NCBI RefSeq assembly: GCF_044324875.1
Contig: NZ_CP172185.1
Reading direction: 5' to 3' (one strand)
Origin: Escherichia coli
GTDB taxonomy: Bacteria; Pseudomonadota; Gammaproteobacteria; Enterobacterales; Enterobacteriaceae
DNA length: 64,000 bases
Below, piece after piece: positions 27,990 to 52,118 of the stretch. The notes under the pieces were generated by a model, which saw only the letters and a list, made by a program, of their open reading frames with translations, was not told where the DNA came from and made no database searches. The position numbers and the translations under genes were made by a program. Position 1 is the first letter of the stretch, and the number at the start of each line of letters is the position of its first letter.

Positions 27990-28257
27990 ATGTCACTCCA
28001 ATGTCCATTTAGTGACGCAATATTTACTTTAGGATAGTTTCCTTGCTTACATTTATCTTTGTTAATAATAACACATGTTAGAGAAGTTCTGGAAGAGAAA
28101 GTCTTTTAATATGGTTTTTTATTTTTCACTAAAAAGTGTGATCGGGGACAATATATTTACGCACGTTATGTTTAAAGGCACTACACTGATTGGGGAATAC
28201 TGAAATCAGAAAAAGCATATGGCCTTAAAAGGTATGCGATAACCGGAGGATGTGCTT

Positions 28258-37695: not shown

Positions 37696-39177
37696 TCAGT
37701 TACGGAAAGGGTTATGACCGTTACTGGTGGTAGTGCGTGCGGATGTTTGCTGAACGACGGGTGCCGGGCTATCAGGCGCATAACCATCAGCAATAGCATT
37801 CTGTTCCGGCGTTTGCGGGGCAACGTTTTCCGGATTAGTGGAAACCGGTTTGCTCAGCGCATTGTTCAGTGCCAGCAGATCCTGCTCGTTCAACGTACCC
37901 AGGGCTGACTTAATATTCAGCTGATTAATCAGGTAGTTATAACGCGCATTCGCCAGCTCTTGCTTGGCGTTGTACAGCGTGGTGGTCGCATCCAACACAT
38001 CAACAATGGTACGCGTACCGACCGAGTAGCCCGCTTCCATCGCATCTAATGAGCTTTGAGCGGAAACTACGGCTTGTTTGTAGGCGTTAATGCTACTGAT
38101 AGAAGCATTAATGTTGTTGAAGGAGGAACGTACGGTTTGCACGACGCTACGATGGGCGCTTTCCAGTTGCTCACTGGCACCAACAAAGTTGTACTGGGCC
38201 TGTTTCACCTGCGAGTTAACCATTCCGCCCTGATAAATCGGCAGCGAGAAGCTCAGGCCAACTTTGTTCTGGCCCATATTGCTATCGTCATACTGGGTAC
38301 CAGCGGCACCTCGGGTTTTCGAACCGCTATATGAGGTGTCAGAAATCCCGGTAGAAGCCGTTAAATCCAGAGTCGGTAAGTGACCATCCTGCGCCTGGCG
38401 AATTTGCTCGCGCGCCAGGTCCTGGCTCAAGCGCGCCTGTAACAACGACAGGTTGCGTTTTTCGGCTTCTTTCAGCAGCGCGTTAACCGGCTGTGGTTTG
38501 TCGGTTTTAAAGTTTTCGACATTCAGCGCCGCCAGTTCCGGATAGTAGTTACCGGTGATCTGGCGCAGCTGCTCTACCGCGTTATCAAGGTTATTACGTG
38601 CGGTCACTTCGTTCGCCAGCACGGTATCGTACTGTGCGCGGGCGTTCTGCACGTCAGTGATCGCTACCAGGCCCACGTTAAAACGTTGGGTGGTTTGATC
38701 TAATTGACGGTAGATCGCTTCTTTTTGCGCCTGTGTATAGGAAAGAACGTCAATAGCATTCAACACGTTGAAATAAGCGGTCGCGGTGTTGAGGATCAAG
38801 GTTTGTTGATCGGTCTGATACGTGACGTCCTGAATCCCAGCTGCTTTTTCCTGCAGCGTTAACGCACGCCATTTCGACATATCAAAAATGGATTGAGTTA
38901 ACTGCAGGGACGCACTGGTCGCGTTAGAGTTGATGCCGTTCGCGTCGCGGTAGCCGTTGCTATAGGTGTAATCTGCACCTAAACCTAGCTGTGGCAGTAA
39001 TGGACTGCGCGCTTCATTAATTTTTTCAAAGGCAGCATCACGATCGGCGGCAGACTTACGCAATTCCGGGTTACTAAGGCGTGCTTGCTGATAAACTTGC
39101 ATCAGGTTCTCGGCCTGGCTCAACGAACTGAACCCAGAGAGGCTCAGGCCGATAAGAATGGGGAGCAATTTCTTCAT
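37696..39177 (-). CDS. tolC: Outer-membrane efflux channel TolC
   Basis: 493-aa protein from the ATG at 39177 (MKKLLPILIGLSLSGFSSLSQA signal peptide); the track ORF has 13 extra upstream codons. Confidence 0.97.
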   Translation of the reverse strand: MKKLLPILIGLSLSGFSSLSQAENLMQVYQQARLSNPELRKSAADRDAAFEKINEARSPLLPQLGLGADYTYSNGYRDANGINSNATSASLQLTQSIFDMSKWRALTLQEKAAGIQDVTYQTDQQTLILNTATAYFNVLNAIDVLSYTQAQKEAIYRQLDQTTQRFNVGLVAITDVQNARAQYDTVLANEVTARNNLDNAVEQLRQITGNYYPELAALNVENFKTDKPQPVNALLKEAEKRNLSLLQARLSQDLAREQIRQAQDGHLPTLDLTASTGISDTSYSGSKTRGAAGTQYDDSNMGQNKVGLSFSLPIYQGGMVNSQVKQAQYNFVGASEQLESAHRSVVQTVRSSFNNINASISSINAYKQAVVSAQSSLDAMEAGYSVGTRTIVDVLDATTTLYNAKQELANARYNYLINQLNIKSALGTLNEQDLLALNNALSKPVSTNPENVAPQTPEQNAIADGYAPDSPAPVVQQTSARTTTSNGHNPFRN

Positions 39178-39249
39178 TTGCATTCCTTGTGGTGAAGCAG
39201 TATTTAGCGCGATCAAACTGTAAAATTATTGCGGATTCTAGCAGAAGCC

Positions 39250-39282
39250 GCTACCGCAAAAGGTTGGCGTTACGTGCCATAG
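39250..39282 (-). promoter_or_regulatory. mar/sox/rob box in the tolC promoter
   Basis: Minus-strand ATGGCACGTAACGCCAACCTTTTGCGGTAGCGG matches the tolC marbox as I recall it, about 80-110 bp upstream of the tolC ATG. Confidence 0.6.
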
Positions 39283-39381
39283 GGCGTTAATGTGCCTCAA
39301 TTTAACACATGACTGCTCAAACGGCAGTCAAACGTCGCTGAAATTCACATTTAATTCACTATTAGTGCCAGGACATTAACA

Positions 39382-40011
39382 ATGCTTAAGCCAGACAACC
39401 TGCCCGTTACATTTGGCAAAAACGATGTAGAAATTATTGCACGAGAAACACTTTATCGCGGCTTTTTTTCATTAGATCTTTATAGATTTCGTCATCGTCT
39501 ATTCAACGGGCAAATGAGTCATGAGGTACGGCGGGAAATTTTTGAGCGCGGTCACGCCGCAGTCTTGCTACCCTTTGACCCAGTGCGTGATGAAGTTGTG
39601 CTGATTGAGCAGATTCGGATTGCCGCGTACGACACCAGCGAAACCCCCTGGCTACTGGAGATGGTTGCCGGGATGATTGAAGAGGGTGAAAGTGTGGAAG
39701 ATGTTGCCCGTCGCGAAGCGATTGAAGAGGCGGGACTGATAGTCAAACGGACCAAACCGGTGTTAAGTTTCCTGGCAAGCCCGGGGGGCACCAGTGAGCG
39801 TTCGTCAATTATGGTGGGCGAAGTGGACGCCACGACCGCAAGCGGTATTCACGGTCTGGCTGATGAAAACGAAGATATTCGCGTTCATGTGGTAAGCCGG
39901 GAACAGGCATACCAGTGGGTAGAAGAGGGGAAAATCGACAACGCAGCGTCGGTCATCGCTTTGCAATGGCTGCAGCTGCATCATCAAGCGTTAAAAAATG
40001 AGTGGGCATAA
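39382..40011 (+). CDS. nudF: ADP-ribose pyrophosphatase (Nudix)
   Basis: 209-aa ORF with the Nudix box [22 protein letters not shown]. Confidence 0.93.
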
Positions 40012-46366: not shown

Positions 46367-47176
46367 GTGGCACATAACGCAAAAGGGCAGGGGCTGATCC
46401 TCGACAATGTTTCTGCCGGGTATCACAAGAAAATCATTGTTGATGGTGTTTCTTTCTCCGTTCCCACAGAAAAAATGACCGTTCTGGTTGGGGCAAACGG
46501 CTGTGGAAAGTCGACGTTGCTCAGCACCATTGCACGTATCTTGCAACCTATGGGCGGCTCGATATTGCTGGATGGTAAAGCGATTCACGAGCAACCAACG
46601 AAAGCGTTATCCCGTAGACTTGGGATCTTGCCGCAGTCGCCATTATTGCCGGAGGGCTTAACCGTTTATGAACTGGTGTCGCGTGGGCGTTTTCCCTGGC
46701 AGAATTTCATTCGTCAATGGAGCGACGCCGACGAGCAGGCGGTAGAAGAGGCCCTGAAATTAACCGGTACGCAGGAGTTTGCACATTTACCTGTTGAAAA
46801 ACTTTCTGGTGGGCAGCGCCAGCGTTGCTGGATTGCGATGGTGTTGGCGCAAAAGACGCCTTATATCCTACTGGATGAACCCACAACCTGGCTTGATTTA
46901 CGTTATCAGGTTGAAATTCTTGAGTTATTACATGATTTAACGCGTCATCACGGGCGTACAGTCGTCGTGGTGTTGCATGATCTGAATTTTGCCGTCAATT
47001 ATGGTGATACGTTGATATTTTTACGCCAGGGGAAAGTGGTGCGTGTGTTGAATGAGGGGGAGCATTGCACGCCTGAGCTGGTAAAAGCTGTCTTTGACGT
47101 TGATGTTCACGCATCAATAAATCCTCTGACGGGAAAGCCGTTCTTCATGCCGTTTCGTGGTGTAGAAAAAGTATGA
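46367..47176 (+). CDS. ABC transporter ATP-binding protein (iron-siderophore / FepC-FecE type)
   Basis: 269-aa ORF with Walker A GANGCGKST, signature LSGGQRQR and Walker B ILLDEPT; the start codon is GTG in the track and is uncertain. Confidence 0.85.
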   Translation: MAHNAKGQGLILDNVSAGYHKKIIVDGVSFSVPTEKMTVLVGANGCGKSTLLSTIARILQPMGGSILLDGKAIHEQPTKALSRRLGILPQSPLLPEGLTVYELVSRGRFPWQNFIRQWSDADEQAVEEALKLTGTQEFAHLPVEKLSGGQRQRCWIAMVLAQKTPYILLDEPTTWLDLRYQVEILELLHDLTRHHGRTVVVVLHDLNFAVNYGDTLIFLRQGKVVRVLNEGEHCTPELVKAVFDVDVHASINPLTGKPFFMPFRGVEKV

Positions 47177-52074: not shown

Positions 52075-52118
52075 AATTAGCAAAATGTGCAAAGTCTTTT
52101 GCTAATTTAGCAAAAGTC
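52075..52118. repeat. Palindrome array built from the 9-mer TTAGCAAAA in the qseC-mdaB spacer
   Basis: AATTAGCAAAA (52075-52085), its exact complement TTTTGCTAATT (52097-52107), and a 19-bp perfect palindrome TTTTGCTAATTTAGCAAAA (52097-52115). Confidence 0.6.

Follow-up and report, generated by a model that had tools for sequence, protein, structure and literature searches.

The mar/sox/rob box of the Escherichia coli tolC promoter region: identity, promoter geometry and conservation

The 20-bp segment at 39280..39261 on the minus strand of the 64,000-nucleotide stretch of Escherichia coli DNA analysed here (the window) is almost certainly the tolC marbox, the activator site that drives the tolC promoters p3 and p4. 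The initial annotation, made from the sequence alone, had placed a mar/sox/rob box on the minus strand at 39250-39282, and this placement holds: the 27-mer that it quoted, ATGGCACGTAACGCCAACCTTTTGCGG, lies inside that interval at 39254-39280 (-), and its first 20 nt form the marbox proper. The same annotation proposed MarA/SoxS/Rob-dependent promoters at this place, a proposal supported by our own observations on sequence identity, on the orientation and spacing of the box and on its conservation, as well as by the literature, from which come the binding of MarA, the binding of RamA to the orthologous site and the activation of p3 and p4 by MarA, SoxS and Rob. The 27-mer has a single exact occurrence in the window, within which no second match with up to two mismatches was found, and 100 shuffles likewise gave none. 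The site is already known and appears to be an ordinary E. coli allele, with nothing new about it. It serves as a positive control, in that a published regulatory site was recognised correctly from raw sequence and placed to within a few bases. AcrAB-TolC and other efflux pumps use TolC as their exit duct in the outer membrane, and the tolC box is the route by which the mar/sox/rob regulons raise tolC in multidrug-resistant E. coli.

The assignment of the site to the region between the divergent tolC and nudF genes is likewise correct, the gene starts being borne out by RefSeq annotation. The start codons, ATG 39177 (-) for tolC and ATG 39382 (+) for nudF, are identical in the RefSeq annotation of a 99.9% identical E. 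coli genome, which places the site in a 204-bp divergent intergenic region, with the marbox 84-103 bp 5' of the tolC start codon. Of 5426 complete E. coli genomes, 5425 match a 1.4-kb stretch around the site, which carries the annotations tolC, nudF and yqiB. Two in-frame ATGs, ATGCAAATGAAG, stand at 39175-39183 (-) ahead of the TolC signal peptide; the RefSeq start of TolC is the second of these (MKK..., 493 aa), and the aligned start reads ATGAAGAAA in 80 of 80 related loci. Coordinates of the features are collected in Table 1.

Table 1. Features of the tolC-nudF region, in window coordinates and in the order in which they follow one another from tolC to nudF.
Feature	Position	Strand	Basis
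tolC coding sequence, 493 codons + stop, first gene of tolC-ygiB-ygiC	37696..39177	-	ORF listing; RefSeq annotation of a 99.9% identical genome
Leader to the tolC ATG, 47 bp	39224..39178	-	sequence
-10 hexamer AATAAT, 30 bp from the box, putative p4	39225..39230	-	read from sequence
tolC transcription start (TSS), approximate; U00096.2 3176084, 40 bp 3' of the marbox centre	39230	-	PMC12052159 S2 Table, converted
CCGC, 4 bp between the hexamers	39234..39231	-	sequence
-10 hexamer TAGAAT, 20 bp from the box, putative p3 (class II)	39235..39240	-	position, conservation, TSS
Spacer TTTGCGGTAGCGGCTTCTGC, 20 bp, from marbox to p3 -10 hexamer	39241..39260	-	sequence variable, length fixed
Marbox ATGGCACGTAACGCCAACCT, MarA/SoxS/Rob binding site, 20 bp, forward relative to tolC	39261..39280	-	consensus, published core, conservation
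Extended -10 TGTTAAATT, upstream marbox-independent tolC promoter	39299..39307	-	conservation and published TSS
Direct repeat CGTTTGA-N4-CGTTTGA, 11-bp period	39317..39334	-	read from sequence
nudF (ADP-ribose diphosphatase), divergent neighbour	39382..40011	+	ORF listing; RefSeq annotation

Agreement of the box with the consensus and with published sites

The box has the asymmetric 20-bp organization of a marbox, with GCAC and YYAAA elements one helical turn apart, and agrees with the consensus AYNGCACNNWNNRYYAAAYN at 13 of the 14 specified positions, the sole mismatch being C for A at position 18. For the tolC site, however, a match to the consensus or to a position weight matrix (PWM) is by itself no better than chance. 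Scanning the window with the consensus AYNGCACNNWNNRYYAAAY and allowing at most one mismatch gave three matches versus 1.39 expected, a number reached by 17 of 100 shuffles. A PWM scan, proposed as a check in the initial annotation, was carried out with a matrix built from the 32 other MarA sites listed in Table 1 of PMC5684230 (Sharma et al., 2017), the tolC site being left out. The tolC site scores 11.98 bits, more than 12 of the 32 verified sites behind the matrix, and ranks 11th among the 127,972 window positions. The three best PWM matches, GCACATAACGCAAAA at 46370-46384 (+), GCACGTTATGTTTAA at 28161-28175 (+) and GCACATTTTGCTAAT at 52076-52090 (-), all score above the genuine tolC site; GCACATAACGCAAAA is found at the start of an ORF (46367-47176, +) that lies 3' of a TonB-dependent receptor gene, and most high-scoring window matches of this kind are expected to be due to chance.

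Such figures, with ten window positions outscoring the site and about as many consensus matches as shuffling can produce, would fit a fortuitous match to a low-information consensus, with no function, all the more as marbox-like sequences number about 10,000 per genome and are mostly non-functional, the motif having a low information content (PMC5684230). Since the motif is statistically unremarkable, the functional case must rest on other evidence, and the tolC box is distinguished by three features: exact identity to an experimentally bound sequence, the geometry of the promoter, and conservation.

With regard to the first of these, the box is indeed the tolC marbox that the initial annotation had named: its 15-bp core, GCACGTAACGCCAAC, is letter for letter the published MarA site, and differences from the characterized marbox at conserved positions, which the initial annotation gave as grounds for refutation, do not occur. 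The MarA ChIP-seq site gcacgtaacgccaac, entered as nudF<>tolC, is identical to window positions 39277..39263 (-), and this sequence between nudF and tolC bound purified MarA in vitro at 1.0 uM (PMC5684230 Table 1). That entry carries no assigned target gene, and a supplement of the same paper makes no mention of tolC. The same 15-mer is assigned to tolC in the S2 Table of PMC12052159, and tolC<>nudF appears as a known MarA target, recovered by the screen and by ChIP-seq, in the S3 Table of that paper.

A second line of published evidence comes from Salmonella, where deletions tested by EMSA located the RamA site, ATGGCACGTAACGCCAACTT, at -99..-80 of tolC and showed it to be needed for binding (PMC2527123). 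This Salmonella Typhimurium site (Nikaido et al., 2008) has 19 of its 20 bases, and its orientation, in common with the window box; the difference, T versus C in the window, is at position 19, where the consensus Y allows both. The window box occupies the orthologous position, at -103..-84 when numbered from the MKK start codon and at -97..-78 when the in-frame ATG upstream of it is used. The Salmonella site was tested with RamA, which is absent from E. coli. For the SoxS peak at nudF<>tolC, the Salmonella ChIP-seq table gives another 15-mer, GCAATAATGATTAAA, which we take to reflect the choice of the motif finder, the EMSA-mapped Salmonella site being the orthologue of the window box.

The identity of the window box to a site verified by both ChIP-seq and EMSA, together with the binding of RamA to its Salmonella orthologue, argues against a fortuitous match, which published binding effectively refutes and whose probability we put at next to nil. 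A 2025 review of TolC describes four tolC promoters, situates the marbox between p2 and p3 and, with reference to Zhang, Rosner and Martin 2008, names it as the site from which p3 and p4 are activated by MarA, SoxS and Rob (PMC11762307). Between the E. coli tolC marbox with its p3 and p4 promoters and the site analysed here, locus, sequence, core and position between the upstream promoters and p3/p4 are the same, and no difference was found.

Promoter arrangement downstream of the box

The -10 hexamers of promoters p3 and p4 are reportedly located 20 and 30 bp from the marbox (Zhang et al., 2008), and the distances of the two -10 hexamers from the box (Table 1) fit these figures exactly. On these figures we take AATAAT to be the putative p4 element. 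A published tolC start could be converted to window coordinates via the position of the marbox, given that the S2 Table of PMC12052159 lists the start at 3176084+ and the marbox centre at 3176044+. So converted, the start lies about 5 nt 3' of TAGAAT, a short discriminator, and the assignment of the hexamer or of the start may thus be off by a base or two.

On the tolC strand the box points forward, with its centre near -40, which falls within the window of -36 to -55 given for forward-orientation class II sites (PMC12052159). The -35 positions read CCTTTT and TAGCGG, the former in the spacer and without resemblance to TTGACA, consistent with the weak or absent -35 hexamer of a class II promoter. 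Scanning 39100-39450 for sigma-70 consensus promoters and terminators revealed none, and the scan was uninformative as a locator. The lack of a sigma-70 promoter match in this segment and the poor -35 positions are, together, as expected for activator-dependent promoters.

The arrangement suggests how the box could operate. MarA, SoxS and Rob, activators of the AraC family, bind the asymmetric 20-bp site as monomers in E. coli, and in genera possessing RamA this protein binds the same site. The 3' end of the marbox would cover the would-be -35 position of p3 (TAGAAT), where the bound monomer may replace the -35 contact with RNA polymerase in class II activation, whereas at p4 (AATAAT) the same box, one helical turn further off, would act in a forward-orientation upstream arrangement. 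We infer this polymerase contact, as well as the assignment of each hexamer to its promoter, from the layout of the region: since neither p3 nor p4 has a usable -35 element, the bound activator would substitute for it by contacting RNA polymerase, and the structure of a RamA-RNA polymerase class II complex is offered for comparison (PMC8811837). Derepression of MarA, induction of SoxS or activation of Rob would then raise tolC, ygiB and ygiC in step with acrAB. The class II promoters micF, lpxC P2, lpxL P1 and rfaY P1 resemble tolC in having a forward box over the -35 position, with the activator replacing the -35 contact, but differ from it in that at tolC one box would serve two promoters that overlap with an offset of 10 bp, and in that position 18 of the tolC box is a conserved C that departs from the consensus.

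Seen from nudF, the box runs in reverse, its centre lying 111.5 bp from the nudF ATG, and a transcription start 27-56 bp 5' of this ATG would put it in the class I window of -56 to -85 (PMC12052159). The box might then be bifunctional, acting also as a reverse-orientation class I site for nudF-yqiB-cpdA-yqiA-parE, a possibility that would link the turnover of ADP-ribose and of cAMP, along with the expression of topoisomerase IV, to the mar/sox/rob response and with which the naming of both genes, and of neither as the target, in the ChIP-seq table is compatible. Nevertheless, we consider it very unlikely, as neither a promoter nor a start for nudF was found in the scan of 39100-39450, no nudF start is listed in the consulted part of the S2 Table of PMC12052159, and our literature search found no report of MarA, SoxS or Rob control of nudF. 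Moreover, the spacing that is fixed (see below) is that to the -10 element on the tolC side, and not to any element on the nudF side.

Conservation of the box and of its spacing to p3

To follow the tolC box across genera, 80 Enterobacteriaceae loci were collected by a search with the TolC N-terminus, in which the marbox was not used, and the 230 bp 5' of the start codon were aligned. These loci, from Escherichia, Salmonella, Citrobacter, Enterobacter, Kluyvera, Raoultella, Buttiauxella, Atlantibacter, Franconibacter and other genera, comprise 77 distinct sequences. A box with at most two consensus mismatches was present in all 77, with exactly one mismatch in 68 of them. Positions 1, 4-7, 13 and 15-17 of the marbox were invariant, and variation occurred mostly at N8 and N9, which are free, at W10, where only A or T was found, and at Y19, which was only C or T. 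The 77 distinct sequences thus bear the mark of purifying selection at the specified positions, with the N positions left free, and mean column entropy was 0.24 at specified positions versus 0.74 for the intergenic region as a whole.

The distance from the box to the -10 hexamer of p3 was 20 bp in 74 of the 77 sequences and 19 bp in the remaining 3, while the sequence of the spacer varied freely. Across genera the p3 hexamer reads TAGAAT (48 sequences), TACAAT (23), TAAAAT (5) or TAGTAT (1). The p4 hexamer is more variable; A at position 2 and T at position 6 are retained in most of its listed common variants. In E. coli itself, a 60-bp segment with the box and both -10 hexamers was 100% identical in 5300 of 5424 genomes. 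Substitutions that mirror the consensus, combined with a spacer of fixed length, are as expected from selection on a class II activator site, and conservation across genera that tracks the consensus position by position, at a fixed spacing to the -10 element, speaks further against a match due to chance. Real marboxes can thus be told from chance ones by the geometry of the promoter and by conservation across genera, but not by a consensus or PWM match alone.

At marbox position 18 (39263), 67 of the 77 sequences have the non-consensus C; G is found in 7 and T in 3. Judged from the alignment, the conserved C suggests selection for a sub-consensus site, perhaps one that may tune affinity or activator preference.

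Elements upstream of the box

All 77 distinct Enterobacteriaceae sequences retain the extended -10 element upstream of the box in the form TGnTA[A/G]ATT. A start at U00096.2 3176023+ in the S2 Table of PMC12052159 maps about 8 nt 3' of TGTTAAATT, near window position 39291 and hence 5' of the marbox, and the promoter to which this element belongs is probably p2 (or p1). With a start near 39291, upstream of the box, the box itself is transcribed early from that promoter. The mapped start, 21 bp 5' of the marbox centre and preceded by the conserved extended -10, might accordingly be taken to mean that the box is also a negative element, with the activator bound at about +11 to +30 blocking read-through from p1/p2, such that induction would switch promoters instead of only adding transcription. 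We regard this as extremely unlikely, given that p1 and p2 were reportedly unaffected by MarA, SoxS or Rob (Zhang et al., 2008), and that no monomeric activator of this family is known to be a strong roadblock. The description of p1 and p2 as being under other regulons points the same way (PMC11762307).

Two further marbox-like sequences were noted in the intergenic region. One of these, GGCACATTAACGCC, at 39282-39295 (-) and directly 5' of the marbox, is a near-duplicate of the marbox segment GGCACGTAACGCC, longer by one base. Highly conserved, it spans the region in which the upstream promoter starts transcription. It is without the YYAAA half, and we read it as that start region instead of as a marbox. 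The other, the 15-mer GCACTAATAGTGAAT at 39354-39368 (-), has PWM rank 20 and is also predicted in the S2 Table of PMC12052159. It adjoins a published tolC start (at about 39363), and 14 bp separate it from the start codon of nudF. We set it aside as a second functional box, since it has three mismatches to the 20-bp consensus and no conservation across genera, and it is probably a chance match.

Just 5' of the extended -10 element, the direct repeat CGTTTGA-N4-CGTTTGA resembles the PhoP box, (T/G)GTTTA-N5-(T/G)GTTTA, and the GTTT cores of the repeat are kept in its commonest variants across genera. From this resemblance, the repeat is a candidate PhoP box, which would fit the reported PhoPQ/EvgAS control of tolC p2. 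Our literature search for a description of a PhoP box at tolC yielded an indirect statement only. Eguchi, in 2003, is said to have described a box at tolC, and this would be the candidate counterpart of the repeat at 39317-39334.
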